A stretch of 64,000 nucleotides of DNA from an uncultured Actinomycetes bacterium (GTDB taxonomy: Bacteria > Actinomycetota > CADDZG01 > JAHWKV01). This document shows, in pieces, positions 11,739 through 28,833 of this stretch. Numbering within the stretch: the first letter of the stretch is position 1; each line of letters starts with the position of its first letter. The translations under genes and the position numbers were made by a program. The notes beneath the pieces are model-generated. The model searched no databases, was not told the DNA's origin, and was given only the letters and a program-made list of their open reading frames with translations. The stretch spans positions 86,314 to 150,313 of the forward strand of contig CAZCSK010000001.1 in the NCBI GenBank assembly GCA_964501265.1. Direction: 5' to 3'.

Positions 11739-12527
11739 ATGCAATATTTAGAGAGCTCGCGCCTGTCCCAGATATGGGCCGCAAGACAACTCCTTAAGAA
11801 CCTCACCGTACGCGAACTAAAGATTCGCTATAAGCGGTCGGCGCTTGGATTCCTGTGGAGCCTGCTGAACCCTCTTCTAATGATGGCCGTCTTCACGCTG
11901 GTCTTTGGGGTCGCCTTCGACATCGGCATTAAGGACTTCCCCATTTTCTTCCTTGTTGGCTACTTGCCTTGGTCGTTCTTTCAGGCTTGCGTTCAGGTTT
12001 CGACCGGCATCATCGTGGGTAACGCAAACCTTGTTAATAAGGTCTACTTTCCCAGAGAAACACTGCCCCTCGCCGTTGTTTTGAGCCAGCTTGTGCACTT
12101 CGTGCTCGCGATGGGGGTTCTGTTCGTCGCTCTAGCGGTCAAGGGGTACGCCTTCCTTCCTTACCTTCCCAGCCTGTTACTTGCGATTGTCTTGCTCGTT
12201 GGACTTTCGACGGGGATATCGATGCTGATGGCCGCAGCGAACACAAAGCTGCGGGACATCCAAGAGTTTCTCAACGTTTTGTTTCTCGTCTGGTTCTACA
12301 TGACTCCGGTGATCTACCCCCTTGACCGGATTCCCGCAAGATTTAGATGGATTATTGAGTTAAATCCCATGACGCAGATCGTCGAGATAGTGCGCGACAG
12401 CCTGTACAGGCTCACCTATCCATCTTGGCAGCGGATCGCAGCAGCCACGGCGGCGGCAATCGTATCTATGATCGTTGGCTTCGTGGTGTTCGGACGGCTC
12501 GCCGACGACTTCGCCAAAGAGGTTTGA
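11739..12527 (+). CDS. wzm: ABC-2 type polysaccharide exporter permease (Wzm/TagG/KpsM family)
   Basis: 262 aa with 6 TM segments and an ABC-2 signature region (…LWSLLNPLLMMAVFTLVFG…), followed by an ATPase gene. Confidence 0.8.
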   Translation: MQYLESSRLSQIWAARQLLKNLTVRELKIRYKRSALGFLWSLLNPLLMMAVFTLVFGVAFDIGIKDFPIFFLVGYLPWSFFQACVQVSTGIIVGNANLVNKVYFPRETLPLAVVLSQLVHFVLAMGVLFVALAVKGYAFLPYLPSLLLAIVLLVGLSTGISMLMAAANTKLRDIQEFLNVLFLVWFYMTPVIYPLDRIPARFRWIIELNPMTQIVEIVRDSLYRLTYPSWQRIAAATAAAIVSMIVGFVVFGRLADDFAKEV

Positions 12528-12570
12528 GCTGACCCTTCCAATAGGCGCTGTTTCGGTCCGAGACGTCTCG

Positions 12571-13731
12571 ATGAACTTTCGGATCTACCACGATCGCGCT
12601 ATAGGAATTAGGGACCGACTAGTTGGAAGACGGCGAAAACGGCCGGAGGAATTCCTAGCCCTTCGCAACGTCAATATCGAAGTGCAGCCTGGCGAAACGG
12701 TGGCCCTCATCGGCCCCAACGGATCGGGCAAGTCGACACTGCTCAAGTGCATCGCCCGTATCATGAAGCCCACCAGCGGAGAGATCCTTTTGAGCGGACA
12801 GACCGCAGCCCTGCTAGAGCTAGGCGCTGGATTTCATGGCGATCTAACGGGCCGGGAAAACGTGTATCTGAATGCGTCGATCCTGGGTTTTGCTCGCAAA
12901 CGCGTAGATGAGATTTTCGACGAGATAGTGGCATTCGCTGAGCTCGAAGATTTCATCGATACGCCGGTTCGCAATTACTCGTCAGGCATGTATGTGCGAC
13001 TGGGTTTCGCTGTGGCGGTCAATCTGTCCCCCGAAATATTTTTGGTCGATGAGGTTCTTGCGGTTGGGGATGCTCGCTTTCAGCAGAGGTGCTTCGATCG
13101 CATTCGCCAGCTTCAACGTTCGGGTACTACTATCGTTCTGGTCACTCATGATCTCGACGCAGCCGCCAACATCTGCCGGACTGCCGTGCTGCTGAACAAG
13201 GGCGAAGTGGTCAAAACAGGAGTAAGCCATCTAGTCGTGGACGCCTATAGGGATCTGGTCGCCGAAAGCGGAGTGCATGAACCTACCGGCTGGACTGGAG
13301 GACCCGTACACGGAAGTGGGGAGATGACCGTAACCAACGTCCGGCTCGAATCTAACGGAGATGACCCCTTGTTGAATTCCGGTGATGAGTTCGCCATTTG
13401 TTTCGATGTTGAGACCCACGTGGCTGTCGAGGACCCCGTCTTCGGGATGATCATTCGAGGGGTTGACGGAACTTACTTGTTCGACACCAACACCCTCTGG
13501 CGGCACCAAGCTACCGGCCGATTCGACAAGGGCCAACGCTCGACTGTGAGATTCGAGCTGAAGGCCAACATCCTTTCTGGGCTTTACCTAGTCACTGTGG
13601 CTGCATCAAACTCAGATGGCCGGAGCCCTTACGACTGGCATACCGACGCCCTCGCCTTCGAAGTCCGGGGGCCGGCCCACTCGGCTGGAGTGGCGGATTT
13701 GGGTGCGCATATCAGTGTAAGGAGCACTTGA
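12571..13731 (+). CDS. wzt: ABC polysaccharide exporter ATP-binding protein (Wzt/TagH family) with C-terminal carbohydrate-binding-like extension
   Basis: Walker A GPNGSGKST, LSGG-type signature YSSGMYVRL, Walker B FLVDE. The extra ~150-aa C-terminal beta-rich domain resembles the Wzt C-terminal glycan-terminus-binding domain. Start placed at ATG 12571. Confidence 0.8.
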   Translation: MNFRIYHDRAIGIRDRLVGRRRKRPEEFLALRNVNIEVQPGETVALIGPNGSGKSTLLKCIARIMKPTSGEILLSGQTAALLELGAGFHGDLTGRENVYLNASILGFARKRVDEIFDEIVAFAELEDFIDTPVRNYSSGMYVRLGFAVAVNLSPEIFLVDEVLAVGDARFQQRCFDRIRQLQRSGTTIVLVTHDLDAAANICRTAVLLNKGEVVKTGVSHLVVDAYRDLVAESGVHEPTGWTGGPVHGSGEMTVTNVRLESNGDDPLLNSGDEFAICFDVETHVAVEDPVFGMIIRGVDGTYLFDTNTLWRHQATGRFDKGQRSTVRFELKANILSGLYLVTVAASNSDGRSPYDWHTDALAFEVRGPAHSAGVADLGAHISVRST

Positions 13732-13732
13732 A

Positions 13733-14590
13733 ATGAGCGATAAGGAAAATTTCGAGAGCGACTACTACGCGTCGAGGTCCTTCGATGAGCAGCACTTGCG
13801 CAAAGTGCGTTCTCACTACTTGAAGTTCTTCAACGGCCGTCGATTCCTCGTTGAACTCGGATGTGGCCGCGGAGAGTTCTTGAAAGACTCCACCGAAATA
13901 GTCGATCGCGCGCTTGGAATCGACATTGAGCCCGCAATGGCCGAGGCTGCAAGAGAGCGCGGACTGGAGGTACACGAAGGCGACGCTCTCTCTTACCTGC
14001 GAGAAACCGCCGACCGACCTGACGCCGTGTTCGCAGCACACCTCGTGGAACACTTCAGCGTCGACGACACCTTTGAGCTGCTACGCGCGGCGGCCAACAT
14101 CATGGAACCCGGCGGAGTCGTCGTGCTCGTGACCCCAAACCCATACTGTCTGGCGGTCATGCTGAGTGACTTCTGGAGCGACCCCACCCATGTCCGCCCC
14201 TACACAACGGCTCTGCTCGAGTTCCTTGTCAAACAAGCCGGCTTCGTCGTCATTGAATCGGGTGCGAATCCACTCGACGTACCCGGGCCTCCGCCGGAGT
14301 TGATCGTACCCGAGACGATGGAGGGATGGGGCCCCCTAGAAACCCATCCTCTTCCGGATCTACCGGAGTACAAAGGCTCCATAAGCCGCAGAGTTGATGA
14401 GAGGCTCGAATTCCTTCTACAACGAACCAACGATATCAACCAAACTTTCGCCGCCGTCACAGAAGCCATCCAACGCCGAGTCGATGAGCTGCGACACCAA
14501 ACTCATCTGGCGACCATCGGGGTCAACAACGCACTGAAATACCTCTACGGCCCTAACGAGATATACATCGCCGCAGAGCGCCCCGCTTGA
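13733..14590 (+). CDS. Class I SAM-dependent methyltransferase
   Basis: Motif I LVELGCGRGEF, with downstream acidic and hydrophobic motifs. Translationally coupled to wzt (stop and start 1 nt apart). Confidence 0.7.
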   Translation: MSDKENFESDYYASRSFDEQHLRKVRSHYLKFFNGRRFLVELGCGRGEFLKDSTEIVDRALGIDIEPAMAEAARERGLEVHEGDALSYLRETADRPDAVFAAHLVEHFSVDDTFELLRAAANIMEPGGVVVLVTPNPYCLAVMLSDFWSDPTHVRPYTTALLEFLVKQAGFVVIESGANPLDVPGPPPELIVPETMEGWGPLETHPLPDLPEYKGSISRRVDERLEFLLQRTNDINQTFAAVTEAIQRRVDELRHQTHLATIGVNNALKYLYGPNEIYIAAERPA

Positions 14591-15930
14591 GTCCCCGGGT
14601 CCGCGTGGTCGTTCTTAACTACAACGGCGGCGACTTTATCCTTCGATGTCTTGAGCATCTGACGCTCATCGAGTGGCCGACGGACAGACTCGAAATCGTC
14701 GTGGTCGACAACGCCTCCAGCGACGGCAGCCCATCCCGGATCAAAGCGCGCTTCCCCGACATCGCCGTCCGCGATGCCGGAGGGAACCTCGGGTTCGCGG
14801 GCGGCAACAATGTTGGGCTACAGGATCTGGCTGACATCGATTACGTCGCTCTCCTCAACAACGACGCCTTTGTGGAAGCAAACTGGCTCGCGCCGCTTGT
14901 GAGGGAGTTGGAAAAGGATCCGGGCCTGGGTGCCGTCAACTCGAAGATCGTGTTTTCGTATTCATACGCCGACCTAGCGATCACTTCCGAAACCTTCACC
15001 CCTTCAGAAGGGGACGGACGGTCGCTCGGACTCCGGATAAGCGGGGTCCGCGTGGATGGAGAGGACCGCTTTCGCAAGGCACATTTCGTCGAGGGATTCT
15101 ACGGACCCGAGCATGGCGGGAAAGAAGAAGTCGACTTTCAGTGGACGGGTGCCAAAGCCTTGCTCCGCATCCCAGTCACTCCGGGCCGGACTGAGTCTGA
15201 GTGCGAGCTGCGAGTCGCCGCCGAACGTACCAAGGCAGTTGGATTCTCCACTGAGGACGGATCACGGGAGTACGAAGTTACGCCGACTCCGACCTGGGTC
15301 AAAGTTCCTCTCCCCAAACGCGCGCACGATGTGATCAATAACGTCGGTTCCGAGCTTGTCGTGAGGGGTTACGGGGGCGACCGCGGTTTTCTTGCGCGCG
15401 ACGTTGGACAGTTCGAGGAACCGGCTGAAGTCTTCGCGTGGTGCGGTTGCAGCGCTTTATTCAGGAAGGCTTATCTGGAAGATGTGGGGTTGTTCGATGA
15501 ACATCTCTTCCTTTATTACGAGGACTTTGACCTGTCTTGGCGCGGACGCCGAAGAGGCTGGCGTTATCTCTACGTTCCCGATTCAGTCGTCCGGCACTTT
15601 CACACGGCAACAAGCCAGGAGAACTCGCCGCTCTTCCAGCACTTCGTTCATCGCAACAGGATGCTCGTACTCATCAAGAACGCGCCAGCTTCGCTAGCTC
15701 TTCAGGCGATCACTGCCTACGTTTGGACCACGATCATTCATGCAATCAACGAGATTCTCCTACCGACAATCAAGGGTCGCAGGCCCTCACCAGGAACCAC
15801 ACAGCGAAGGTTGCGGGCCTTCGCATCTTTCATTCGCCTCGTGCCGTGGGCGCTTCGGGAACGGATGCGTATCTCCCGAACCGCAAGAGTCAGCGCGGCG
15901 AAGTTGATGGAATGGGTCGTCGAGAGATGA
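14587..15930 (+). CDS. GT2 family glycosyltransferase (rhamnosyltransferase-like)
   Basis: VRVVVLNYNGGDFILRCLEHL…IVVVDNASSDGS…GGNNVG… The C-terminal region is typical of WbbL/GT2_3-like enzymes. Confidence 0.75.
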   Translation: MSPRVRVVVLNYNGGDFILRCLEHLTLIEWPTDRLEIVVVDNASSDGSPSRIKARFPDIAVRDAGGNLGFAGGNNVGLQDLADIDYVALLNNDAFVEANWLAPLVRELEKDPGLGAVNSKIVFSYSYADLAITSETFTPSEGDGRSLGLRISGVRVDGEDRFRKAHFVEGFYGPEHGGKEEVDFQWTGAKALLRIPVTPGRTESECELRVAAERTKAVGFSTEDGSREYEVTPTPTWVKVPLPKRAHDVINNVGSELVVRGYGGDRGFLARDVGQFEEPAEVFAWCGCSALFRKAYLEDVGLFDEHLFLYYEDFDLSWRGRRRGWRYLYVPDSVVRHFHTATSQENSPLFQHFVHRNRMLVLIKNAPASLALQAITAYVWTTIIHAINEILLPTIKGRRPSPGTTQRRLRAFASFIRLVPWALRERMRISRTARVSAAKLMEWVVER

Positions 15931-17474
15931 AGGTCGCGGTTTACGACCGCTACTGGGGCACCGCCGGAGGAGGAGAAAAGGTGGCGGGAGGGGCAGCTCA
16001 GGTTCTATCGGACGAACATGAAGTCTTCCTACTTGGAAATGAACCGATCGATTTACAAACTCTGCAAGAAAGACTCAACCTCGACCTTCGTCGTGTTCAG
16101 ACCCACATCTTTGACGACACCGGAAGCGGAGCTTTGACGGCCGCAACCGAAAAGTACGACCTGCTGATCAATTGCTCTCACTTAAGCGCCGATCCGTGCG
16201 GCGCGGCCCGCGGCATCTACTATGTCCACTTCCCGACACCCTTCGACCACCACATCGGCGCGCCGCAACGAGCCGCGGTAAAGCTCCTGCGCCCCTTCGT
16301 GAGACCGAGGGGGGTCACCTTGGATTGGGGAAATGGATTCCACCTGCCTGAACAGTTCCGCCTGCGGAGATATAGATGGACGTCCGAAAAGGCCTATCTA
16401 AAGATCAGCGCACCCGAGGGGCGGCGAGCGGAAATTCATCTGACGCTTGGGGCACACAAGCCCGCCGGGTTGGAACCCGCCTATGTGAATATCGATGTGG
16501 ACGGCCGGATGGTGCGAGAACTCGAGGTGGGGCGCAAACCCATTCGTGTCGACCTCGAAACATATGGCCAGGGCGCAAACAAGCCGTCGGTAATCGGGAT
16601 AACCAGCACTGTCTTCGTTCCAAGCGAGGTAGTTGGGGGATCAGACATGAGAAGGCTCGGCGTGCAGCTGCTCTCCGTTAGGGTCGGAGATGGGCTGGGC
16701 TCACGAATAGCGGCTGCCTACCCTCTACTCGCAACCCCACCGGTGTCCCTCGACTTCCTTTCCAGCTACGACCGGGTAGTTGCAAACTCCGAGTTCACTC
16801 GCCGATGGGTCGCTATCCGGTGGGGCAGAGACAGCGATCTGCTGTATCCCCCCGTTACTGCCATCGAACCCGGACAGAAGTCGCCGGTCATCCTCTCCGT
16901 GGGACGTTTCTTCGACCGCAAACACGGCCACTCGAAGAAACAGTTGGAGCTTGTCCGCGCGTTCGCCACAATGCACCGCTCCGGCCTTCGGGGGTGGGAA
17001 CTTCATTTGGCGGGTGGGGTCAGCGACGACCAGCGGGAGTACCTCCACAAGATTGAGCGCGAAGCACACGGGCTGCCGGTTCACATCCACATCGATGCCT
17101 CCGGCACGCAGCTGCGAGAGCTCTACTCGAGGGCCAGCATCTTCTGGCATGCGACCGGATTGGGAGAAACCGCAGAGCGCACTCCTCATCTTATGGAGCA
17201 CTTCGGGATATCAACCGTGGAGGCGATGTCTGCCGGAGCGGTGCCCGTTGTGATCGCGAAGGGTGGGCAGCCGGAGATCGTGCAAGAGGGCGTGAGTGGA
17301 TTCTTGTTCGCAGATCTTGAGGAACTCGTTGCGAAGACACACCGGATCATCGAAGACCCAGACATGACGCAGCGCGTGTCGTCAGGCGCCAGAGCACGAT
17401 CTGCCGAGTTCAACATCGAACATTTCGGCGCGCGCTTGAAGGGAATCATCGACCAGATCATCATGTCGGCGTGA
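15927..17474 (+). CDS. GT4 (GT-B) glycosyltransferase with ~180-aa inserted domain; paralog 1 of a tandem pair
   Basis: Start MKVAVYDRYW… (ATGA overlap with the upstream stop). The C-terminal GT4 half reads VGRFFDRKHGHSKKQLELV…EHFGISTVEAMSAGAVPVV… The ORF-track N-terminal extension (15537) overlaps the previous gene and was rejected. Confidence 0.7.
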   Translation: MKVAVYDRYWGTAGGGEKVAGGAAQVLSDEHEVFLLGNEPIDLQTLQERLNLDLRRVQTHIFDDTGSGALTAATEKYDLLINCSHLSADPCGAARGIYYVHFPTPFDHHIGAPQRAAVKLLRPFVRPRGVTLDWGNGFHLPEQFRLRRYRWTSEKAYLKISAPEGRRAEIHLTLGAHKPAGLEPAYVNIDVDGRMVRELEVGRKPIRVDLETYGQGANKPSVIGITSTVFVPSEVVGGSDMRRLGVQLLSVRVGDGLGSRIAAAYPLLATPPVSLDFLSSYDRVVANSEFTRRWVAIRWGRDSDLLYPPVTAIEPGQKSPVILSVGRFFDRKHGHSKKQLELVRAFATMHRSGLRGWELHLAGGVSDDQREYLHKIEREAHGLPVHIHIDASGTQLRELYSRASIFWHATGLGETAERTPHLMEHFGISTVEAMSAGAVPVVIAKGGQPEIVQEGVSGFLFADLEELVAKTHRIIEDPDMTQRVSSGARARSAEFNIEHFGARLKGIIDQIIMSA

Positions 17475-19093
17475 AGATCGCCGTCTACAACCGCTACTGG
17501 CAGACCCTCGGAGGAGGCGAACGGTACACCGGTTCCGTGGCCCAGGCGCTCGCGGCAAAACATGACGTGACCTTGCTCACCAACGATCCCCTGGACCTCG
17601 AACTCATCAGCGAACGCCTTGACCTCGACCTTTCGGGGGTTCGCGTCCAACAGATCACCGATGCAGGACGACTGGCACTAAAGCGCGCCACCGAAAGCTT
17701 CGACCTTTTTGTCAACTGCTCCCATCTGAGTGAAGATGCCAACGGAGCGCGTCGTGGGATCAAGATGGTCCAGTTTCCGACTGCTCATCTAACTTTCCTC
17801 CAGCACCTAAACATCAGGCTTTTGGGGCGCTTCGTAAGATCACGTCAGGCACGTCTGGAATGGGGGGTTGGTTTCTATCCACCCGAAGGAAACTTGCTCA
17901 GAGCCTATCGCTGGACCAGCAGCGAGAGAGTCGTATTAAGGGTCTTCGCGCCGCTGGACGAAGAAACTGAGCTGTCGCTACTTATAGGTTCGCGGCCTAA
18001 GGATGCAGGTTCGGATTCGATCAAAGTCGAAGTCGACGGGGTCAATCTGGCAATGGTCCCTTGGAGTTTCACGGGTGGGACGCGCGTCCGCGTTTCGGTG
18101 CGCGGCCTTGGGCTGGATTCGCCCGTCGAGGTGATCCTTCGTAGCGACACTTTTGTTCCAGCGGAGATTGGCCTGGGAAATGACATACGCAGACTTGGGT
18201 TTCCCTTGCTGTCGGTCAGAGTTGGTAAGCGAATCACCGGAAATCCGCGTTTCAAAGACCTAGCGTCGTTCGCGGCCCCCAGACCTGTCGAGGCCATCGA
18301 CGGCGCGCTTGGTACTGTCGGACTCAGGCTCGGATGGCAATACCCCTACCTTCGCGAGCCCAAACCAAATCTCGGCGACCATCTGGATACCTACGACCGG
18401 GTCGTCTCCATTTCGGAGTTCACCCGGAAGTGGGTCAAGATTCGATGGGATCGCGATAGTGACATCCTCTATCCGGCGGTTCCCCAGATTCCGGGGAGAG
18501 CCAAGGAGAACATCATCCTGTCAGTGGGAAGGTTCTTCGATCGCAAGCACGGACACTCGAAGAAACAACTCGACATGGTGCGCGCATTCAGATCGATGAT
18601 CGAAAGGGGCCTCGGCGGATGGGAACTGCATCTTTGCGGGGGCGTTAGCCCTGAGCAAGTTGAATACCTGGATCGTGTACGCGAAGAGGCGGAGGGGCTT
18701 CCAATTCGTATCCACGTGGACGTTTCCGGAGAGGTTCTGAAGGACCTTTATTCGCGCGCAGCGATCTATTGGCATGCCACCGGATTAGGTGAGAAGGAAT
18801 CGAAAGACCCACACCTGTTCGAACACTTTGGAATAACTACCGTCGAAGCGATGTCCGCGGGGGCGGTGCCGGTCGTGATTGGGAAGGCAGGTCAAATTGA
18901 GATCGTGACAGACGGGGTGGACGGCTTTCACTTCCAGAATCTCGGAGAGTTAGTCGGCAAGACAATGCGATTGATCCAAGATGAGGCGCTCCGCAGATCG
19001 TTATCACAGGCCGCGATCCATCGAGCGAAGGATTTTGCCATCGAGCGCTTTTCCGAGCGACTCGAAGAGATCGTGCAACAAGTAGTCGGGTAA
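17471..19093 (+). CDS. GT4 (GT-B) glycosyltransferase with inserted domain; paralog 2
   Basis: MKIAVYNRYW…VGRFFDRKHGHSKKQLDMV…EHFGITTVEAMSAGAVPVV… ~50% identical to the upstream gene. GTG start overlaps the upstream stop. Confidence 0.7.
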   Translation: MKIAVYNRYWQTLGGGERYTGSVAQALAAKHDVTLLTNDPLDLELISERLDLDLSGVRVQQITDAGRLALKRATESFDLFVNCSHLSEDANGARRGIKMVQFPTAHLTFLQHLNIRLLGRFVRSRQARLEWGVGFYPPEGNLLRAYRWTSSERVVLRVFAPLDEETELSLLIGSRPKDAGSDSIKVEVDGVNLAMVPWSFTGGTRVRVSVRGLGLDSPVEVILRSDTFVPAEIGLGNDIRRLGFPLLSVRVGKRITGNPRFKDLASFAAPRPVEAIDGALGTVGLRLGWQYPYLREPKPNLGDHLDTYDRVVSISEFTRKWVKIRWDRDSDILYPAVPQIPGRAKENIILSVGRFFDRKHGHSKKQLDMVRAFRSMIERGLGGWELHLCGGVSPEQVEYLDRVREEAEGLPIRIHVDVSGEVLKDLYSRAAIYWHATGLGEKESKDPHLFEHFGITTVEAMSAGAVPVVIGKAGQIEIVTDGVDGFHFQNLGELVGKTMRLIQDEALRRSLSQAAIHRAKDFAIERFSERLEEIVQQVVG

Positions 19094-19133
19094 AATCCGA
19101 TAGCTTGACCGCGTAACGGAAGAAGATAGTGGA

Positions 19134-21878
19134 ATGCTGCGTAGAGTCCTAGTTTCAATTGCCTTGCTTGGCTCTCTCCTCGTCAGGGCACCAATTCCTG
19201 CATTGGGCGGACCTAGTTCGTTTGTCTTTCAGGGGGGAGGCTTCGGGCACGGAATTGGAATGAGCCAGTACGGCGCGCTCGGGATGGCCCGCGCCGGTTT
19301 CCCGTACGACCAGATCCTTAAGCACTACTACACCGGGGTGACGGTGGGCTCACGAGCATTGCCCCCCACTATCAGAGTGGGCCTCCGGCAAACCGACGGC
19401 GGCTTTCGCCTTTCGGGAAACGGGCTCTTCACCTTCTCCACATCGATCGACGGAGCAGCAATGTCCACCGGCAACACAGACGAGTGGTGGGACATCCGCC
19501 GCGAGGGATCGTCGGTCTTTCTTCTCGCCCCGCCGGCCCGCGTCCAACAGGGAGAACCTGCCGAGCGGGGACCTTTCGCCCAGATATGGCAGCGACCGGC
19601 ATCGGGCGTTCTACTGAAGTTCGTCGAATTTGTAAGTCCATCCTGGAAGGTAACCGGCGAGTACGCACACGGGCGCATACAAGTGAAGGCAAGCGCTGCG
19701 GCGACCACCACGCACGTGGTTCTCGATGCGATCTCGCTCGAAGAGTACGTCTATGGAGTTGCGGAGGTTCCTTCATCTTGGCCAGCGGAAGCAAAGAAGG
19801 CGCAGGCGGTCGCGGCTCGCACCTACGCGGGCAAGAAGGCGGAGGAACAACAAAACCGAAGCAGTTGTTCGTGCGCGGTCGTCGACGACACCCGTGACCA
19901 AGTGTACGCAGGATGGATCAAGGAAACCCCCGCGTGGACGAGCGCGGTTGATGCCACTGCTTCAGTAGTGGTCACGTACGCCGGGGTGATGGTTTCTACG
20001 TTTTACTCCTCTTCGTCCGGCGGATACACCGAGGACAACGAAAAGGTTTGGGGAGGCAGCGCCATCCCGTACCTGCGCGCTGTCTCGGACCTGTACGACA
20101 ATCAGCCGGAAAACTCCCGCTGGCGATGGACGATTTCGGTTTCAGCAGAAGAGTTGAGCAATCGGATCAACAGTTACTTGACCTCTATTGGCCGGCCCCA
20201 GGTGGGAATCGTTCAAGACCTTCTTTATCCGGCGCCGCGCGGGCACGCTGGCCGCATCATCGTGATCAGTGGTAGCGGTGGGGGCGTGACAGTCATCGGA
20301 TCAAGCGCAACCGCGCGGCTTTCAGGCGACCAGTTCAGGTCTGCAGCGAAGTTGCCCAGCTCACTCATCTTCCCATCGATAAACGAACCCACTCGCGACG
20401 TTTCGGGTGGGTACGTGGCAGACGCACGCGGGGGCCTTCATCCTTTCGGCGGAGCGGGGCCGGCAGTGGGTGGCGCCTACTTGAGCCAACCTATAGTGCG
20501 AGACGCGATCTACAGGACTGACGGACGGGGAGGCTATGTTCTCGACGGACGCGGAGGTCTTGCAAGGATCAATGGTGCGCCCGAAATTGGCTCGGCTCCC
20601 GCGTTTGGCATCGACATAGCGCGATCCATGGCCATCACCCCCGACGGATCCGGTGGTTACGTTGTCGACGGATACGGCGGCATCCATAGTTTGGGAAGCG
20701 CGCCGCCCCTTACTGGGAGCCCGTACTGGCAGGGATGGGACATTGCCCGCGCAATTGCTCTTTCTCCCGACGGACTTGGCGGCTATATGTTGGATGGTTT
20801 TGGCGGGCTTCATCCTCTCGGCAACGCCGCGCCAGCGGTTGATCTGCCGTACTTCGGATTTGACATCGCCCGGGATCTGATCATGAGGAGGGACGGAAGC
20901 GGCGGTTATGTGCTCGACGGTTTTGGAGGGATCCACCCGTTCAACGGCGCTCCCGCAATTTCGTCTTCCGGGTATCACGCCGGCGTCGACTCGGCAGCGG
21001 CTCTAGTTCTTCGCAACAAAGGCGTCGGTGGTTATGTGCTCGAACGCTCCGGCGCCCTCGTGGCGGTTGGGGGAGCGCCGGGAGTGTCAACGACTGGCTA
21101 CTTCGACTCGGGCGCTGCCCGGGGAGTCCTCCTTCCTCCCGACCCCGAGGGGTACATCCTTTCGAGCGAGGGCCCAGTGAGCGCGTTCGGTCTGGCGCCG
21201 GCCCTTGTCGGCGCGCCTAATTTTGGCATGGACATCGCGCGCGACCTCGCCCTTCGTCCAAACAGAACCGGATTCGTGCTCGACGGATATGGAGGATTGC
21301 ATCCTGTAGGGGTCGGGGCCCCCGCAGCGATCGGTGGCTCGTATTTCTCCGGACAGGATCGAGTTCGTCGGATCGCGCTGACAACCGACGGAAGTTACGG
21401 ATACGCGATGGATGCCGACGGAAGCCTGTACCCATTCGACGGCGCACCCGCGGTAACGGAGACTTCAACCTGGTGGCCGGATGGCTTCGATGTGGCGCGC
21501 GACTTCGTGCTTCGTCCATCGGGAGGCGGCTACCTCATAGACCGGGGAGGACTGGTTCACGAATTCGGTGGAGCGCCAGCAGTTTCAAGCTCGTGGTACG
21601 TAGGAGGAGAAGATCGCGCTCGAGCCCTTGCCCTCTTGGCCGACGGACAGTCGGGGTATGTCCTTGAAGTAAACGGCGTCCTGCATCAATTCGGTAGCGC
21701 GCCACCACTCGAATCTGGAGTGGTCATCGCCGACGCTCGCGACCTGATTCTGCGTCCGGACGGCCGTTCGGGCTGGATCGTCGGTGTTTCGTTAATCCAT
21801 CCTTTCGGTGGAGCGCCTCCAGTCTCGGGTGGATTGCCTTCCGACAAAGCAGCTCGGGCCGGCGTGGGAACCTCCTAG
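19134..21878 (+). CDS. SpoIID/LytB-domain cell-wall protein with C-terminal array (~12x) of 'LDGxGGxHP…DIAR' repeats
   Basis: Signal peptide; the SpoIID/LytB hallmark GGGFGHGIGMSQYGALGMA…YDQILKHYYTG. Residues ~413-914 are ~42-aa repeats, e.g. GGYVLDGFGGIHPFNGAPAI…, GFVLDGYGGLHPVGVGAPAAIGGSYFSGQDRVRRIAL. Confidence 0.8.
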   Translation: MLRRVLVSIALLGSLLVRAPIPALGGPSSFVFQGGGFGHGIGMSQYGALGMARAGFPYDQILKHYYTGVTVGSRALPPTIRVGLRQTDGGFRLSGNGLFTFSTSIDGAAMSTGNTDEWWDIRREGSSVFLLAPPARVQQGEPAERGPFAQIWQRPASGVLLKFVEFVSPSWKVTGEYAHGRIQVKASAAATTTHVVLDAISLEEYVYGVAEVPSSWPAEAKKAQAVAARTYAGKKAEEQQNRSSCSCAVVDDTRDQVYAGWIKETPAWTSAVDATASVVVTYAGVMVSTFYSSSSGGYTEDNEKVWGGSAIPYLRAVSDLYDNQPENSRWRWTISVSAEELSNRINSYLTSIGRPQVGIVQDLLYPAPRGHAGRIIVISGSGGGVTVIGSSATARLSGDQFRSAAKLPSSLIFPSINEPTRDVSGGYVADARGGLHPFGGAGPAVGGAYLSQPIVRDAIYRTDGRGGYVLDGRGGLARINGAPEIGSAPAFGIDIARSMAITPDGSGGYVVDGYGGIHSLGSAPPLTGSPYWQGWDIARAIALSPDGLGGYMLDGFGGLHPLGNAAPAVDLPYFGFDIARDLIMRRDGSGGYVLDGFGGIHPFNGAPAISSSGYHAGVDSAAALVLRNKGVGGYVLERSGALVAVGGAPGVSTTGYFDSGAARGVLLPPDPEGYILSSEGPVSAFGLAPALVGAPNFGMDIARDLALRPNRTGFVLDGYGGLHPVGVGAPAAIGGSYFSGQDRVRRIALTTDGSYGYAMDADGSLYPFDGAPAVTETSTWWPDGFDVARDFVLRPSGGGYLIDRGGLVHEFGGAPAVSSSWYVGGEDRARALALLADGQSGYVLEVNGVLHQFGSAPPLESGVVIADARDLILRPDGRSGWIVGVSLIHPFGGAPPVSGGLPSDKAARAGVGTS

Positions 21879-24186
21879 CGGGACCAACTTGAGAAACGCA
21901 ATTCGCAACTTCTTGTCCACACGGGGCTGGGAAACTGGGGGGGCGCTTGCATTCGCCTTGTTCGTTGCCTGGCCCCTTTTCCATCCTGGTCGGCTGGTAA
22001 CGGGTTTTGACACACTCACTTATTCGGTCCCCAATCACGCCGTTTCCATCGCGGCTCTGCGGGCGGGCCGTCTCCCGGCGTGGAACCCCTACATCTTTGG
22101 CGGGGCCCCTCACCTGGCTAACCCGCAGGTCGGGATCTTTTATCCACTCAAGTGGGCCTCGATCTTCGTCTCGCCTCATCGAGGACTTGTTCTACTGACC
22201 GGTCTGCATCTTCTCATTCTGGCACTCGGGATGGTCGTGCTCGTCGGAGGCGCTCTCAAGTTGCGACGGCCAGCCGCGTTGATTGCCGCAGTGATCGCTA
22301 CTGGCTCGGGAGTGGCTATGGCTCAGTCACTGCATTTCGAGCAGATCCTCACAATCGCTTGGGCCCCTTGGTTGCTGGCGGCGGTGGACGCCGCAGCTGC
22401 AGGAACGATCCGAATCCGCCGGGGAGTTGCGGCCGTAGCCTTAACTTGCGGACTCATGATTCTGGCCGGACACCAGCAACCCGCTTACGTGGTGCTCGTG
22501 CTGGCAGTTGCTTGGGCTTTGGCGCGGTGCATCGAGGTCAAATCAGTTACTCGTTTCCTCGGAGTGCTGGGCGGATTGCTGCTCGGGTTGGGCCTGGCTG
22601 CCGTTCAGCTTGTACCGACACTCGACCTTGTTAGTCGCTCGGTACGCGAGGGCGGACTCGCAATCAAAGGGCTCAGCGCCCCAGGCTACCTGCTCAATCT
22701 ACGCGACCTGCCGGCCGTACTCCTGGGCAACTCAGTTGCGCGTTCGATCATTAATGCTACCGGCGGCGTCGAAGCTAGCGCCTACATTGGCGCTGCAGGG
22801 TTTGTTCTCGTTCTCGTCGGTCTGATCGTGAGCATCAAGGTCGGGCGGCGAGTCTTGATCCTCACCCTCGCGGCGTCGGTGTTGGTCGCCACCATTTTGG
22901 CAGCAGGACCGGTCACGCCCTTCTTTCGCGCCGCCCACGCGGTCATTCCCGGCTTCTCGCTGTTTCGCGTTCCCGCACGCTGGGTGCTTGCGACAGACCT
23001 CGCACTCGCCGTCCTGGCCGGTTTCGGCGTTGACGCAATCGTGCAGAGGCATGTGCGGAGACGTGACGTCGTCGTCGTGCTGGCGGTCGGGGTGGTGATC
23101 GCGGTGCTCATCGGTGTGCGGGCTCTGCATCGCCCCTCGGGACCCGCAGTTATTGTTTGGCTGATCGCCGGAGGCACAATACTTGCGGGGGCTGCGATGG
23201 CGGGTCGCTTAGGCCGTCGACGGTTTGGGTTGGCGGTTCTCATACTTCTTCCCGTCCTCGAGCTTGGTGGCGCTGCGTCCCAGTCAACGCTTCCGAAACT
23301 CGCTCTCGACCTGCCGTTGCGCATTTATCCTCAGGCTGGAGATTCCGTGAAATTTCTTCAGGGGCATCCCGGGCGGACGCTTCCACTTGGGGGGGATCCC
23401 CAGGGCGCCCCCTTTTATAGCGCCGCTACATTGCGCCCCAACCTCAACGCGACGTACGGCGTCCGATCTCTCGATGGATACGATGGCGGCCCCCAAGTTT
23501 CGCGCCGTTGGGTACGCGCAATGGAGAGCCTGACCAAGCAGCCCTTTAACCCCGACCTCACTCTCAAGGCTCAGATGCCAGTCCCACTCGATGCCGAGAT
23601 GCTGGCCCGTTTCGGTGTGCGCTGGGCCCTTCTCGACACTGACATCAACCCCCCAAGTGTCGTCGTCCCAGGTTGGGGAGAGTCCGTTGCCCGTGAAGGA
23701 AACATTGGGGTGTGGGAAAACCCGCGGTACCAGGGGGAAGGATTTCTTTACGCGGCGACGAAGCCCCTAGGGAATCGCCCCGGTGAATCCCTCCGTGCTC
23801 TTGGGCTTGAAAGCAACTCGATCGCGCTTGTCGAGTCAGACGGCCCAGTCCTTGCCTGCTCCCTCGAGTGTGCAAGGTCTCCCGTCCCGGTAGGTCGTCC
23901 CCGGCCCGAGCGGATGACTGTCAATACCCAATCCGTTTCCCCCTCACTTCTGGTTGTGGCAGAACAGTGGGATCCGGGCTGGCGCGCCGAAGTGGACGGC
24001 AAGAAAGCGGTGGCGATACCGGTAGACGGATTCATGCTCGGGGTTTCGCTGCCCCCAGGCCATCACCGAATCAGACTCACATATCACGTCCCCGGCCTCG
24101 CGATTGGAACATCCCTGACGCTGCTTAGCTTGGCAATCACAACATTGCTGACGGTGAAGAGGCGCGCCGTTAACGCGTCGTTATGA
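21808..24186 (+). CDS. Large polytopic membrane protein, YfhO/GT-C-like (putative extracytoplasmic glycosyltransferase)
   Basis: ~13 predicted TM helices and an N-terminal region resembling YfhO-family proteins (…PAWNPYIFGGAPHLANPQVGIFYPL…), plus a large C-terminal extracytoplasmic domain. The true start may be TTG 21889, because the ORF-track start overlaps SpoIID by 70 nt. Confidence 0.55.
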   Translation: MERLQSRVDCLPTKQLGPAWEPPSGTNLRNAIRNFLSTRGWETGGALAFALFVAWPLFHPGRLVTGFDTLTYSVPNHAVSIAALRAGRLPAWNPYIFGGAPHLANPQVGIFYPLKWASIFVSPHRGLVLLTGLHLLILALGMVVLVGGALKLRRPAALIAAVIATGSGVAMAQSLHFEQILTIAWAPWLLAAVDAAAAGTIRIRRGVAAVALTCGLMILAGHQQPAYVVLVLAVAWALARCIEVKSVTRFLGVLGGLLLGLGLAAVQLVPTLDLVSRSVREGGLAIKGLSAPGYLLNLRDLPAVLLGNSVARSIINATGGVEASAYIGAAGFVLVLVGLIVSIKVGRRVLILTLAASVLVATILAAGPVTPFFRAAHAVIPGFSLFRVPARWVLATDLALAVLAGFGVDAIVQRHVRRRDVVVVLAVGVVIAVLIGVRALHRPSGPAVIVWLIAGGTILAGAAMAGRLGRRRFGLAVLILLPVLELGGAASQSTLPKLALDLPLRIYPQAGDSVKFLQGHPGRTLPLGGDPQGAPFYSAATLRPNLNATYGVRSLDGYDGGPQVSRRWVRAMESLTKQPFNPDLTLKAQMPVPLDAEMLARFGVRWALLDTDINPPSVVVPGWGESVAREGNIGVWENPRYQGEGFLYAATKPLGNRPGESLRALGLESNSIALVESDGPVLACSLECARSPVPVGRPRPERMTVNTQSVSPSLLVVAEQWDPGWRAEVDGKKAVAIPVDGFMLGVSLPPGHHRIRLTYHVPGLAIGTSLTLLSLAITTLLTVKRRAVNASL

Positions 24187-26059
24187 CCGCCCGGGCAACA
24201 TCCAGGCCCACCCATGTGCTTGATTGCGGCAGTCCAGGGGCATTACCGAACGTCCAGATCCTCCCGATGGAATCAAGCACCCAACCTCCTCCTCCGTCTG
24301 AGGTAAGAGCCAGTCCGCGCGCAGTGTCTTGGCCGGGTGCGTAGTAATTCGGAGACATCGATGGGGCTCCACCAAAGGAGTGAAGTCCACCCCAGCCGTC
24401 GAGCACGTACCCACTAATGCCATCTGGGCGCAAAGCGATCGCTCTTGCAATATCAAATCCGAAATAGGGAACGCCCAGTACCTTGGAAGCGACCCCCAGC
24501 GGGTGGACCCCGCCAAAGCCATCTAGGACGTAGCCGGCCGTGCCTGATGCATTCACAGCAATTCCCCGGGCGATATCCCACCCCCAATAAGGGCCACCAC
24601 GAGGAAGGGCGGCGCCACCGAATGGGTGAACACCTCCGTAGGCGTCAAGAACGTAGCCTGTCCCATTCGCCGGACCTTTAGCGGCCCCTCGCACTATGTC
24701 CCACCCGGCCCAATAGGAGTTCCCGGAGATCGGCAACGCGTCGCCATAAGGATGTAACCCGCCATATCCGTCAACGACATACCCGCCGCTGCTCGACCCG
24801 ATTGCGGCGCGCGCAATCGGCCACTTTGCCCAGTAGGAAGAGTGAGTCACCGCCGCTTGGCGCCCGGCGGGGTGCAGCCCTCCGTAACCGTCAAGCGTCA
24901 AGAGGCCCGGCCCGCTCGCTGCGGGGGTCCAACCGGGCAACGGGTGTGGCGGCGTGGAAAACACTTCCGACTGCACGTCGATACGCAGCTGGGGGATTAA
25001 GGGATAAGCGCGATCCCCTGGGCAGGCGGTTGCCGACACGTCTCGATGCCCACTGATCACGTCGAGCGTCACGTTCGTACCCGCTGGATAGCGCGTTGAC
25101 CCGCCGCTCACCGCCTGAATCTGAGCGCGTGAGTCGACTGTGTGATGGGTGAGTTTCCAGGCAAGTAGAGAACGCAACGCGGAACGAGAGGCGACCGGAA
25201 CCGGCACTGGCCCGTGCTCGCCAATCAAAGCGACACCTGTACTGCCGGTGTTGAACCCCCCGGAGTGCGCACCGATTACAGGTTTGGTCGTGCCTCCGAA
25301 CCGGCCCTCGTACACTCGGCCGAACCGATCGATAAGAAAGTTGTAACCGATGTCGCACCACCCGTTGCCAAGAACGTGGTAACGGTAGATGGCGCGCACA
25401 ATCGCCGGGGCCTCTTCTGCTGTGTAAGTGTTGGCGTTGACCGTGTGATGAACGAACGAATTCCTTAGTGAGCCAGCGTATTCGGGGGTTCCACAACCAG
25501 AGTTGGACGTGCGCAGGCTTTCATCGGCCCCCCATTCGGCGCGCGAGATTATCCCTGGCTGAGCAGGGGTCGCCGTCGCCGGAGAAATAGTGAACGGGCG
25601 AGGCTGCGAAACCTCCGAATGAATTAGATGCATCTTCAGCTGCGCGAGCGATCCCTCGGTGACTCGCACGTCCAGCGCGTCGACTCCACGCCCGATCCAG
25701 GTTGGGCCCGCCGATGTGGTGGCGCGATTCTCCATCGAACTCGGGTCCGGGCCTTCGTCGGGGTTGCCGTAAAGCTCGGTCCAGGGGGACCACCCGTCTC
25801 CTCTTCTAAGACGAATCTCCACTGCGCCCTCCACGTGGCCTTGCCACTCGAACCCAACGACTTCCGCCGGCTTGCTTAGCGACAGGAAACGGCGGTATCC
25901 GGGAGATGCTTCTTGAAGTGAACCGGACGCCAGGTCAACGATCCGGCTTTCCACGCGGGGCGGCCTCTGCTGCGGCGCGACCAAACCAGCCGATACCAAC
26001 GACAAAGCCACTACCAGCGGAGGCAGCCTTAAGGACCATCGATTCATGTGTGAAGACAC
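24170..26059 (-). CDS. N-acetylmuramoyl-L-alanine amidase (Amidase_2/PGRP domain) with C-terminal 'LDGxGGxHP…DIAR' repeats (~6x)
   Basis: Signal peptide; Amidase_2 motifs …FVHHTVNANTYTAEEAPAIVRAIYRYHVLGNGWCDIGYNFLIDRFGRVYEGR… The C-terminal ~255 aa are repeats, e.g. GYVLDGFGGVHPLGVASKVLGVPYFGFDIARAIAL. Confidence 0.8.
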   Translation of the reverse strand: MSSHMNRWSLRLPPLVVALSLVSAGLVAPQQRPPRVESRIVDLASGSLQEASPGYRRFLSLSKPAEVVGFEWQGHVEGAVEIRLRRGDGWSPWTELYGNPDEGPDPSSMENRATTSAGPTWIGRGVDALDVRVTEGSLAQLKMHLIHSEVSQPRPFTISPATATPAQPGIISRAEWGADESLRTSNSGCGTPEYAGSLRNSFVHHTVNANTYTAEEAPAIVRAIYRYHVLGNGWCDIGYNFLIDRFGRVYEGRFGGTTKPVIGAHSGGFNTGSTGVALIGEHGPVPVPVASRSALRSLLAWKLTHHTVDSRAQIQAVSGGSTRYPAGTNVTLDVISGHRDVSATACPGDRAYPLIPQLRIDVQSEVFSTPPHPLPGWTPAASGPGLLTLDGYGGLHPAGRQAAVTHSSYWAKWPIARAAIGSSSGGYVVDGYGGLHPYGDALPISGNSYWAGWDIVRGAAKGPANGTGYVLDAYGGVHPFGGAALPRGGPYWGWDIARGIAVNASGTAGYVLDGFGGVHPLGVASKVLGVPYFGFDIARAIALRPDGISGYVLDGWGGLHSFGGAPSMSPNYYAPGQDTARGLALTSDGGGGWVLDSIGRIWTFGNAPGLPQSSTWVGLDVARAVITTR

Positions 26060-26105
26060 TCTCTCTTAGTCTCGGCAATCCGGCGGGTCGGTTTAAGGGG
26101 TGACC

Positions 26106-26684
26106 TTACGGCAGCGGTCGCAGGCCCTTTAGATCGTCTATCTGTTCGTAGCTGCGGCCACACGAACAGGAAAGCTCCGCAGGCAACGTTAGCCCGCACT
26201 CGCATACCCATCCTACCCTGCGAGCGGGATTGCCGACCGTGACAGCGTGCGCAGGAACGGATCTCGTAACCGTTGCCCCTGCCCCTACGAACGCGTGCTC
26301 TCCAATGATCACTCCGCAGACGATGGTCGCATTGGCTCCTATCGTTGCACCGCGCCTCACGAGAGTCGGCGAAAACTCGTCGGGGGACTTCTTGAAGGCC
26401 GCACGCGGGTTGAGGTCGTTCGTGAACACCGCGTGAGGGCCGACGAACACGTCATCCTCTATCGTCACCTTGTCGCAGATCATGATGTAGTTCTTGATCG
26501 TGACACGGTCTCCCACGACGGCTCCGCTTTCGATGAAAGCATGCCCGCAGATGTTGCAGTCCGCTCCGACGTGCGCTCCTTGCATAATCTGGGCAAAAGC
26601 CCAAACTCGCGTCCTTGGACCGACATTTACCGATTCGCACAGGGCTTTGTCGTGCACGAATACGGATGGGTCGGGCAAAGTCAA
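26106..26684 (-). CDS. Left-handed beta-helix (hexapeptide) sugar N-acetyltransferase, WbpD/PglD-like
   Basis: Hexapeptide repeats (…IGANATIVCGVIIGEHAFVGAGATV…) with a C-terminal Cys cluster (CECG…CSCG). Translationally coupled to the upstream DegT gene. Confidence 0.75.
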   Translation of the reverse strand: MTLPDPSVFVHDKALCESVNVGPRTRVWAFAQIMQGAHVGADCNICGHAFIESGAVVGDRVTIKNYIMICDKVTIEDDVFVGPHAVFTNDLNPRAAFKKSPDEFSPTLVRRGATIGANATIVCGVIIGEHAFVGAGATVTRSVPAHAVTVGNPARRVGWVCECGLTLPAELSCSCGRSYEQIDDLKGLRPLP

Positions 26685-27787
26685 CGGACCGCCTTTCTTA
26701 GGGCGTCGGCCACCCGCTGCTGCTGTTCGGGCAAGATCTCGGGAAAGAGGGGAAGTGACAGGATCTGGCTCGCGGCCTCTTCGGCGACGGGAAAGTCGCC
26801 TTCTTCGTGGCCGAGACTCTTGAATGCCCCTTGAAGATGAATAGGCACGGGGTAGTGGATTCCCGCTCCGATATCTTGCTCATGAAGCTTCTCAAGAACA
26901 CGGTCACGGTCCGGCACTCGCACTACATAGAGATGCCAGATGTGCTCGTTACCACCGACAACTGATGGCAGGGTCACCTCATCTAAATCTTCGAGAAGCT
27001 CTTCATACTTAGCAGCTGCCACGCGCCGTGCCGCATTCCCGTCTGCGAGCCGCCGCAGCTTCGCACTAAGAACCACTGCCTGAAGGGTGTCGAGACGCGA
27101 GTTATAACCCTCCTGGGGATGCAGGTATTTGACTTCACTTCCGTAGTTTCTAAGAGCCCGTACCTTCGCGGCAACGTCGTCGGAGTTGGTGATGACCGCT
27201 CCAGCGTCGCCGTAAGCCCCTAAGTTTTTGCCTGGGTAAAAGCTAGTTCCGGCTGAGATACCAAATGCGCCCGCGCCAACACCGTTTCGGACAGCGCCCT
27301 GAGCTTGCGCCGCGTCCTCGATGATCAGAACCTGGTCGGAGGCGATCGTTGCGAGATCCTCCATCGGCGCCATCTGCCCGTATAGGTGGACAGGCATGAT
27401 CGCTCTCGTTTGCGGCGTCATCTTCCTCGCCACGTCATCCGAGTCGAGAAGATAGTCATGGGTCACGTCGACGAGGACGGGCCGCGCTCCGGCCCGCATC
27501 ACGGCAAGGGCGCTCGCCACGAAAGAGTTTGTCGGGACAATCACTTCGTCGCCCATGCCAATCCCCGAAGCGCGCAACGCGAGTTCGAGTGCATCCGTTC
27601 CGTTGGCAACACCGATGCAATGCTTGACTCCCGAGAAACTCGCAAACTCAGCCTCGAACTTACCGACTTCCTCGCCGAGGATGAAGGCGGTCCGATCTAA
27701 AACCTTCTCCCAACCGACCGCGACTTCCTTTTCGATCGCTCGATGCTGGGCCCGCAGATCAACGAGAGGAATCGGCGCGTCACTCAA
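26681..27787 (-). CDS. DegT/DnrJ/EryC1/StrS-family PLP-dependent sugar aminotransferase (WbpE-like)
   Basis: 368 aa. The PLP-lysine region …SFYPGKNLGAYGDAGAV… and overall pattern are typical of nucleotide-sugar 3-/4-aminotransferases. Confidence 0.85.
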   Translation of the reverse strand: MSDAPIPLVDLRAQHRAIEKEVAVGWEKVLDRTAFILGEEVGKFEAEFASFSGVKHCIGVANGTDALELALRASGIGMGDEVIVPTNSFVASALAVMRAGARPVLVDVTHDYLLDSDDVARKMTPQTRAIMPVHLYGQMAPMEDLATIASDQVLIIEDAAQAQGAVRNGVGAGAFGISAGTSFYPGKNLGAYGDAGAVITNSDDVAAKVRALRNYGSEVKYLHPQEGYNSRLDTLQAVVLSAKLRRLADGNAARRVAAAKYEELLEDLDEVTLPSVVGGNEHIWHLYVVRVPDRDRVLEKLHEQDIGAGIHYPVPIHLQGAFKSLGHEEGDFPVAEEAASQILSLPLFPEILPEQQQRVADALRKAVR

Positions 27788-28810: not shown

Positions 28811-28833
28811 TTCGGAATCCTACTCATTGCAGG

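Follow-up and report, generated by a model that had tools for sequence, protein, structure and literature searches.

Bacterial systems are known in which unrelated exoproteins share one repeated, non-covalent anchor and a secondary polymer linked to the cell wall serves as its ligand; the SLH domains that bind pyruvylated secondary cell wall polymer (SCWP) and the choline-binding repeats that bind teichoic acid are such systems, and the link to the ligand is demonstrated in both. LGFP repeats (PF08310), known from C. glutamicum MytA/PS1 and from Rv3811-type amidases, form C-terminal tandem arrays on secreted actinobacterial enzymes, and the LGFP domains of MytA interact with peptidoglycan-arabinogalactan in pull-downs, as summarised in PMC11299179. 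Here we describe a comparable arrangement in 64 kb of DNA from an uncultured Actinomycetes bacterium (64,000 nucleotides (nts) in all, hereafter the window), where four secreted proteins, among them a SpoIID/LytB-domain protein and an amidase, carry C-terminal tandem arrays of the same repeat of about 42 amino acids (aa). By sequence search and structure prediction, the repeat is an uncatalogued sequence family within the known fold class of six-bladed beta-propellers, and we consider it fairly probable that the propeller targets its carriers to the cell envelope, or retains them there, by binding a wall carbohydrate.

A hidden Markov model (HMM) was built from 19 clean seed units and searched against all six-frame open reading frames (ORFs) of the window. 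It matched exactly four ORFs, and the next-best ORF had an E value (E) of 0.05. These four are the proteins for which a preliminary description, made from the sequence alone, had claimed a shared tandem repeat, and the array coordinates given there were correct within a few codons in all cases. The carriers and their arrays are as follows.

19134..21878, + strand: secreted SpoIID/LytB-domain protein of 914 aa with a C-terminal 12-repeat array (PF08486, E 4.9e-17; TIGR02669, E 1.5e-55; hydrophobic leader)
20388..21149, + strand: SpoIID repeats 1-6, first predicted six-bladed propeller (HMM units, AF2, Foldseek)
21150..21875, + strand: SpoIID repeats 7-12, second predicted propeller, with more degenerate units (HMM units, AF2, Foldseek)
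24170..26059, − strand: secreted Rv3811_N + Amidase_2 protein of 629 aa (PF01510, E 3.5e-13; PF27503 Rv3811_N, precomputed on the identical protein P0378)
24173..24940, − strand: C-terminal six-repeat array of the amidase, predicted six-bladed beta-propeller
6474..10739, − strand: secreted 1421-aa protein with three ~230-aa Asp/Gly-rich repeats, four Calx-beta domains and a C-terminal propeller (PF03160, E 5.3e-79)
6477..7247, − strand: propeller of the Calx-beta protein, 5 full units and a split blade (HMM units)
38931..40757, + strand: secreted 608-aa protein with four CarboxypepD_reg domains and a C-terminal propeller (PF13620, E 9.8e-42, 4 stretches)
40068..40754, + strand: propeller of the CarboxypepD_reg protein, with a degenerate first, four strong and a weaker last unit (HMM units)

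The match of the repeat HMM was strongest for the SpoIID/LytB ORF (E 1.9e-119; 12 units, aa ~424-900), followed by the amidase ORF (E 4.6e-95; 6 units, aa 385-629), the Calx-beta ORF (E 4.6e-89; 5 full units, aa 1180-1405) and the CarboxypepD_reg ORF (E 4.3e-63; 4 strong units). Inspection of the last two arrays gave further units. In the Calx-beta array, a 'DIARD' strand at the N-terminal end combines with a 'GVVLDRTGNLWDF' half-unit at the C-terminal end into a sixth, split blade, and the CarboxypepD_reg array reaches six with its weaker last and degenerate first units. The copy numbers of about 12 and about 6 proposed earlier for the first two proteins are retained, and the two values of about 5 become 6 and 6 when split or degenerate units are counted, so that the totals per array are 12, 6, 6 and 6, all multiples of six. 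The consensus obtained from 401 units of 136 cluster representatives, sGGYVLDG[WYF]GG[LVI]HPFGgAP-x6-YWpGWDIARx[LIV][AV]LxPDG, is essentially the one first proposed, and conservation across these units is high at G10 (99%), D7 (95%), D31 (91%), H13 (90%), R34 (90%) and W27 (86%). Tandem Repeats Finder detected no tandem array at the DNA level in the window, the repetition being at the protein level only, which indicates that the units are old and diverged and reflect neither recent amplification nor an assembly artefact.

All four carriers have a hydrophobic leader according to a crude hydropathy test, and neither a sorting signal nor a membrane segment was found at the C-terminus of any of them. 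The carriers had been described as four cell-wall-active proteins; this holds for the SpoIID/LytB and Amidase_2 proteins, and in the Calx-beta and CarboxypepD_reg proteins no wall-active domain was demonstrable. A protein identical to the SpoIID/LytB carrier (P0121) is present on a 228-kb NCBI contig, and the public gene call of the amidase begins four codons later than the 629-aa ORF.

Structure prediction of the C-terminal arrays, which had been proposed in the preliminary description, was performed with AlphaFold2 (AF2), and a propeller fold was predicted. The model of the SpoIID array (aa 415-914, 500 aa; predicted local distance difference test (pLDDT) 83.6, predicted template modelling score (pTM) 0.77) contains 12 units of 3 strands, and its best Foldseek matches were tandem double propellers, 2ymu and LRP6 E1E2. 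The fold class of six-bladed beta-propellers is defined by six four-stranded antiparallel sheets around a central axis, one per repeat of ~40-50 residues, with the termini closing the ring, and the predicted propeller falls into this class; one repeat unit is predicted to be one blade, and six units to form one such propeller. Since six units are commonest in the family and the model of the SpoIID array is most similar to double propellers, this array would consist of two six-bladed propellers in tandem, and a single 12-bladed ring is unlikely for the same reasons.

The Foldseek matches of the predicted propeller had E values no better than 5e-5; YWTD receptor propellers and 1l0q, the YVTN propeller of an archaeal S-layer protein, are among the highest-ranking. 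A structural resemblance to TRIM NHL and Kelch domains was also noted. The resemblance to solved propellers is fold similarity, not family membership. Since the 1l0q and YWTD receptor propellers bind proteins, the propeller might be a protein-protein platform that assembles its carriers into a surface layer or a multi-enzyme complex, as archaeal S-layer YVTN propellers or WD40/YWTD platforms do; several carriers are adhesin-like (Calx-beta, CarboxypepD_reg and Ig domains), and one metagenomic contig (L013) holds a cluster of secreted multidomain proteins, as this explanation would predict. We regard it as improbable because no conserved partner protein was found beside the carriers, because near-identical aromatic and charged residues in each blade are more typical of multivalent lectins, and because the position of the propeller is taken in homologous enzymes by lectin or wall-binding modules (LGFP, Ricin-B, PLL-like; see below), not by protein-binding ones.

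No family in Pfam-A or NCBIfam accounted for the repeat in any of the four proteins, the matches being confined to their N-terminal domains. When the isolated 496-aa array was searched against all of Pfam-A at E <= 10 using hmmscan, only a chance match to TPP_enzyme_C (E 1.9) was obtained. A single-sequence search of the PDB using phmmer gave three chance-level matches, the best of which was the PknD NHL sensor 1rwi (E 0.085), and a search with a 67-sequence profile gave zero matches at E <= 10. These searches of Pfam-A, NCBIfam and the PDB, by sequence and by profile, bear out the initial statement that the repeat fits no known family. Of the cell-wall and repeat families that could be considered, SLH, CW_binding_1, CW_binding_2, PG_binding_1, LysM, SH3b, FG-GAP, LVIVD and tachylectin were not matched in Pfam-A at E <= 10, LGFP had no match on any of the four window proteins, and no membership in the LDL-receptor class B/YWTD family (PF00058) was found. 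NHL (PF01436) gave no Pfam match at E <= 10, and a relationship to the PknD NHL propeller was rejected by hhalign of the window profile (probability 0.06%). A relationship to PLL-like/DUF346 (PF26607, PF03984), for which there was no Pfam match on the 496-aa array, was rejected in the same manner by comparison with the C-terminal array of P0402 (probability 0.1%). A literature search on motif strings and on propeller wall-binding domains found no description of the repeat; the 42-aa RIVW repeat of a 2004 paper on RIVW, LGxL, LVIVD and LGFP repeats was neither matched nor excluded, the abstract of that paper giving no consensus.

Six-bladed propellers of the lactonase/SGL type and of the PknD type suggest a further role, that of an enzyme or a small-molecule sensor. 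For the present propeller this is extremely unlikely, since one conserved motif recurs in all the blades and no unique central set of active-site residues is seen, since the propeller is always accessory to another domain and is present in two copies in the SpoIID protein, and since there is no sequence relation to NHL/SGL.

The position of the propeller was compared among homologous enzymes. In the 120 best homologues of the full window SpoIID protein, the repeat array accompanied SpoIID in 12 (the window's own included; 31-100% identity, 7-12 units detected in each), the repeat was found on non-SpoIID proteins in 4, and it was absent from 104, most of which carry LGFP. In all three LGFP-bearing homologues that were checked, LGFP is C-terminal to the SpoIID domain, which is the position of the propeller in the window protein. 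A similar pattern was observed for 120 close homologues of the catalytic part (Rv3811_N + Amidase_2) of the amidase, where the propeller was present in 39, Ricin-B lectin in about 36 and PLL-like/DUF346 propellers in about 10. As judged from these comparisons, the propeller appears to be interchangeable with LGFP on SpoIID/LytB proteins and with Ricin-B and PLL-like modules on amidases, and the occurrence of these modules in its position points to a slot where binding modules are exchanged. Several of the alternative modules are carbohydrate binders.

Some sister amidases (P0407, P0414, P0420, P0435, the C-terminal ~230 aa of P0457, and P0472) contain two further repeats to which no precomputed Pfam family is assigned. 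One is an FG-GAP-like unit of ~45 aa, 'GDWNGDGxDTxGVxRxGxWYLRN', and the other a Cys-containing unit of ~38 aa, 'RIGVINSCGGAYVKEGxLxxPF'.

To determine the size of the family, the five propellers of the window were combined into a profile, which was run against 1.84 billion cluster representatives (50% identity). The profile matched 5,573 clusters at E <= 1e-3, a number that fell to 1,808 at E <= 1e-10 and to 803 at E <= 1e-30. All members come from metagenomes or metagenome-assembled genomes (MAGs), and the few that are taxon-labelled belong to Acidimicrobiia/Acidimicrobiales, 'Actinomycetota bacterium' and Candidatus Dormibacterota MAGs. Six units per protein was the mode in two samples of homologues (69/120 and 69/136), and the array was C-terminal in 104 of 136 representatives. 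By crude hydropathy, an N-terminal hydrophobic segment was present in 146 of 212 homologues starting with M (69%), compared with 2 of 212 in an internal control window.

Partner domains were counted in 67 representatives drawn at random from the best ones. Peptidase_M23 was the most frequent (10), followed by PQQ_2 (4), SpoIID and CHAP (3 each), and YkuD, Amidase_2, CAP and arylsulfotransferase (2 each); GH25, GH18, GH43, GH9, subtilase S8, GSDH and Ig-like domains occurred once. The first family search added TIG, fn3, PF08924 and neprosin. More than 20 different partner domains were thus found, all of them extracellular, with peptidoglycan enzymes as the largest group, and no cytoplasmic partner domain was present among the examined homologues. 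The initial claim of an exclusive attachment to cell-wall hydrolase or remodelling domains has to be given up, because the propeller is also found on GH9, GH43, GH18, S8, CAP, arylsulfotransferase and GSDH proteins, on PQQ propellers and on adhesin-like proteins with Ig or Calx domains. A module that is terminal, non-catalytic and common to unrelated enzymes on exported carriers would, on these sequence features, belong to the wall-binding or anchoring class. The anchoring role envisaged at the outset fits this result, the module being terminal and non-catalytic, on proteins with leader-like segments in 69% of cases, and in a slot common to LGFP, Ricin-B and PLL-like modules.

The family also extends to a phage tail. 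On the viral contig L011 (IMGVR_UViG_3300049846_001316), a 2343-aa ORF with the length expected of a tape-measure protein is directly followed by a 946-aa ORF (7656-10496). Residues 370-946 of the 946-aa ORF match phrog_5287 'minor tail protein' (E 2.7e-94). Its N-terminal extension of ~290 aa contains diverged copies of the repeat, four blades of which were aligned by hhalign with a probability of 97.4% (E 1.3e-11). Tail proteins of phages that infect Gram-positive hosts commonly bear wall-glycan-binding modules, and the occurrence, on a single metagenomic contig, suggests that phages of repeat-bearing hosts may use the propeller for adsorption. Isolate phage genomes gave no match to the repeat, and none is expected if the hosts are uncultured. 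In phage phi11, the receptor-binding protein has a five-bladed propeller whose putative GlcNAc-binding cavity is implicated in the recognition of wall teichoic acid (PMC6115969).

The four carrier genes are surrounded by genes for glycan biosynthesis, which are listed here with the domains that identify them.

10842..45207 (whole ~1.1-45.2 kb): glycan-biosynthesis island around the four genes, with glycosyltransferases (GTs) of families GT2 and GT1/GT4, methyltransferases, YfhO, PMT_2, DegT and GFO
1151-2245: epimerase at the edge of the island
11739..13731, + strand: Wzm (ABC-2 permease) and Wzt (ABC ATPase with Wzt_C), polysaccharide export (PF01061, E 7.8e-25; PF00005; PF14524, E 8.2e-27)
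40770..42170, − strand: LCP ligase (LytR_cpsA_psr + LytR_C), attachment of glycopolymer to peptidoglycan (PF03816, E 1.4e-43; PF13399, E 1.7e-14)

The order of the genes is epimerase, GT2, Wzm, Wzt, methyltransferase, GT2, two GT1, SpoIID-repeat, YfhO, amidase-repeat, then DegT aminotransferase, GFO oxidoreductase, GT2, PMT_2, GT2 + methyltransferase, methyltransferase, and finally three ORFs without a Pfam match, CarboxypepD_reg-repeat, LCP ligase, two GT4 and GT2. A glycopolymer biosynthesis island with an LCP ligase had been recognised from the start, and Wzm/Wzt, many GTs, methyltransferases, YfhO, PMT_2 and LCP were indeed found.

The island appears to resemble the S-layer glycan (slg) clusters of Gram-positive bacteria in its gene set, and Wzm/Wzt with Wzt_C, methyltransferases beside them and two genes of GT-C type, YfhO and PMT_2, would also be expected if the locus were an slg-like protein-glycosylation cluster, with the propeller proteins as acceptors and the synteny reflecting their glycosylation. 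This explanation is very unlikely, because the presence of an LCP ligase suggests that the product of the locus is attached to peptidoglycan, lectin and wall-binding domains replace the module in homologous enzymes, the occurrence of the module in a phage tail argues for a binding role, and family members are also found away from such loci.

Synteny was determined in other contigs. SpoIID- and amidase-repeat genes are found in glycan loci of at least four other metagenome contigs, L004, L005, L009 and L010, among which Wzm/Wzt were seen only in L004. L004, which comes from an Actinomycetota MAG, has a SpoIID orthologue with 56% identity, and L005 is the same locus. The genes of L004 follow each other as CAP-repeat, Wzm, Wzt, methyltransferase, GT2, GT1, SpoIID-repeat, DUF6311, CarboxypepD_reg-repeat, amidase-repeat, GT4 and YfhO. 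In L010 (62% identity), SpoIID-, CarboxypepD_reg- and amidase-repeat genes accompany GT2 and methyltransferase genes, and in L009 (36% identity) SpoIID- and amidase-repeat genes accompany several GT4, methyltransferases and PMT_2. The CarboxypepD_reg-repeat orthologues of L004 and L010 have the architecture of the window protein. In an independent sample of six loci chosen without regard to SpoIID orthology (L001, L006, L007, L008, L012 and L013), three were in glycan loci. The Dormibacterota locus L001 has two repeat genes beside a likely flippase, two likely GT4 and an O-antigen-ligase-like gene (roles assigned from ORF translations), L007 has three GT4 and a sugar nucleotidyltransferase gene adjacent to its repeat gene, and the three repeat genes of L012 lie amid fragments of GT and methyltransferase genes. 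The synteny favours a link of the repeat to wall-glycan synthesis, short of proof.

In the mechanism we propose, the propeller would be a non-catalytic, usually C-terminal module of exported proteins lacking a membrane or sortase anchor. Each propeller would offer six near-identical sites, every one with the conserved residues H, Y/W, W, D and R, from which avidity would arise as it does in propeller lectins and in choline-binding or SLH repeats; a SpoIID/LytB glycan-strand enzyme, an amidase and two adhesin-like proteins would in this way be co-localised on one wall component. The leading candidate for the ligand would be the Wzm/Wzt-exported, probably methyl-capped and LCP-attached polymer encoded around the carriers, an identification we offer as a tentative one. 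What the analysis establishes is the repeat itself, its predicted fold, the size and partner domains of the family, the module swaps and the synteny. Carbohydrate binding, the identity of the ligand and a lectin-like multivalency are what we infer, the last because every blade contains a His, an Asp, an Arg and two or three aromatics, a composition like that of multivalent propeller lectins.

Several points weigh against wall-carbohydrate binding, or against the polymer of the locus as its target. Binding is argued from sequence, synteny and predicted fold, and the conserved H/Y/W/D/R could be purely structural, like the Asp of the YWTD motif. The array is N-terminal or internal in 32 of the 136 representatives. 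Of the independent loci, L006 (a CHAP fusion) lies among housekeeping genes only, and L008 and L013 have only a Wzy_C-type gene within 10 kb; since GT genes are common, the enrichment in glycan loci, strong in 3 of 6, is statistically insecure. The propellers group by orthologue and not by genome, those of the orthologues of SpoIID propeller 2 clustering apart from propeller 1, so that concerted evolution within a genome was rejected; the fusions are old, and nothing indicates that the propellers co-evolved with a ligand particular to one genome. The spread of the labelled matches from Actinomycetota to Dormibacterota at ~45-50% identity is reconciled with a conserved ligand, for instance peptidoglycan, no less easily than with a polymer specific to the locus.

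If the propeller bound peptidoglycan itself, by its glycan strand or stem peptide, it would target hydrolases to their substrate and serve as a generic wall anchor for the other carriers. The commonest partners (M23, CHAP, Amidase_2, SpoIID, YkuD and GH25), the position of L006 outside any glycan locus, the evolution of propellers with orthologues and the persistence of the family across labelled matches of the two phyla all agree with this explanation. We nevertheless hold it to be rather unlikely, because several propeller genes are clustered inside glycan-biosynthesis loci and this is conserved, because the Ricin-B and PLL-like modules that take the same slot are typical sugar lectins and not known peptidoglycan binders, and because enzymes acting on other substrates (GH9, GH43, S8) also bear the propeller. 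Retention on the envelope through a wall carbohydrate is the reading that we prefer. Whether it can be generalised is more speculative: a lectin propeller together with a methyl-capped, LCP-attached polysaccharide exported by Wzm/Wzt might form a general non-covalent anchoring system of uncultured Acidimicrobiia-type Actinomycetota, and possibly of Dormibacterota, with dozens of exoenzymes per genome, a co-localised SpoIID-amidase pair and exploitation by phages.

Further observations concern the island and the genes beside the carriers. At 12475-14590 (+), Wzt with its carbohydrate-binding Wzt_C domain is directly followed by an S-adenosylmethionine-dependent methyltransferase gene, a pairing also present in L004. 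E. coli O9a has a methyl-type chain cap, and the pairing suggests that the island polymer may be methyl-capped, chain-length-controlled and exported in the O9a manner, a methyl-type cap being proposed because Wzt_C adjoins the methyltransferase. Three ORFs of the island have no Pfam match at E <= 1e-3 (31268-33316 (−), 35827-37590 (+) and 37808-38815 (+)); they may be uncharacterised membrane glycosyltransferases or polymerases, since a DUF6311 protein is encoded beside the SpoIID gene in L004. Starting at 21808, the longest ORF for YfhO shares 71 nts (21808-21878) with the 3′ end of the SpoIID gene, and the true start is probably downstream of 21808 because the public gene call for this contig begins later (785 aa, compared with 792 aa in the window ORF).

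In the window and in L004, L005, L009 and L010, five divergent contigs in all, the genes for a SpoIID/LytB-type and an Amidase_2 enzyme, both with the propeller, lie a few kb apart at most, which recalls the peptidoglycan-degrading SpoIID-SpoIIP pair of sporulating Firmicutes. In Bacillus, SpoIID works on amidase-denuded strands, and SpoIID and SpoIIP act sequentially on peptidoglycan. Tethering of the SpoIID/LytB enzyme and the amidase to one component would co-localise enzymes of the kinds that are sequential in Bacillus.

In the Calx-beta protein, the region of aa ~45-700 consists of the three ~230-aa repeats, which are rich in 'DLNGDG/DSNAFYGDTHIIDG' Asp/Gly loops. Only sub-threshold dockerin-like matches were obtained for them, with no family assignment, and as judged from their sequence they probably bind calcium. 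The adjoining gene (2317-6393 (−)) encodes a 1358-aa secreted protein of unusual architecture, in which a complete penicillin-amidase (Ntn-hydrolase) domain (PF01804, E 6.5e-85) is fused to cadherin-like/Big_9 and three to four Calx-beta domains, without a propeller. On L013 (Logan SRR22452306 contig, 165-16494), nine co-oriented genes encode large secreted proteins, one of which has a seven-unit propeller; the run, which looks like a surface-protein island, contains GSDH, Peptidase_M11, Big_7, CarboxypepD_reg and weak dockerin-like matches.

If the proposed function is correct, a domain that is at present invisible to annotation, there being no Pfam or NCBIfam model, would be named and explained in hundreds to thousands of protein clusters, and a handle would be gained for predicting the surface proteome of uncultured Acidimicrobiia, Actinomycetota and Dormibacterota lineages. 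The wall polymer that serves as anchor would be indicated, a new propeller-lectin scaffold gained and a clue to phage recognition provided, and there would be a reason why SpoIID/LytB and amidase are kept together in a glycan locus, both being tethered to one wall component. No new principle is implied, since non-covalent repeat anchors and propeller lectins are already well known; what is new is the sequence family.

Compared with the known propellers, the repeat shares only the fold with the six-bladed NHL and YWTD domains (PknD 1rwi; LDLR, LRP4/6 and nidogen), at 10-18% identity; their motifs are YWTD or NHL as against LDGxGGxH...WDIAR, and their ligands are proteins or unknown. It has no sequence relation to the RSL/AAL fucose lectins or to PLL-like/DUF346 propellers, RSL being a trimer of two-blade units and PLL having seven blades; these bind sugars, as the window propeller would. 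Gp45 of phage phi11 is similar to the L011 protein in that a propeller-type module is placed on a phage tail protein (PMC6115969), and differs in having five blades and an unrelated sequence. LGFP occupies the same slot after SpoIID/LytB, and differs in being an alpha+beta unit of ~54 aa that forms a stalk and not a propeller, with no sequence similarity. SLH domains and choline-binding repeats have other folds, and their ligands are demonstrated, whereas the polymer proposed here is deduced from synteny; the logic of the anchor would be the same, and the propeller with its polymer would be a counterpart of SLH with pyruvylated SCWP, of choline-binding repeats with teichoic acid and of LGFP with arabinogalactan.

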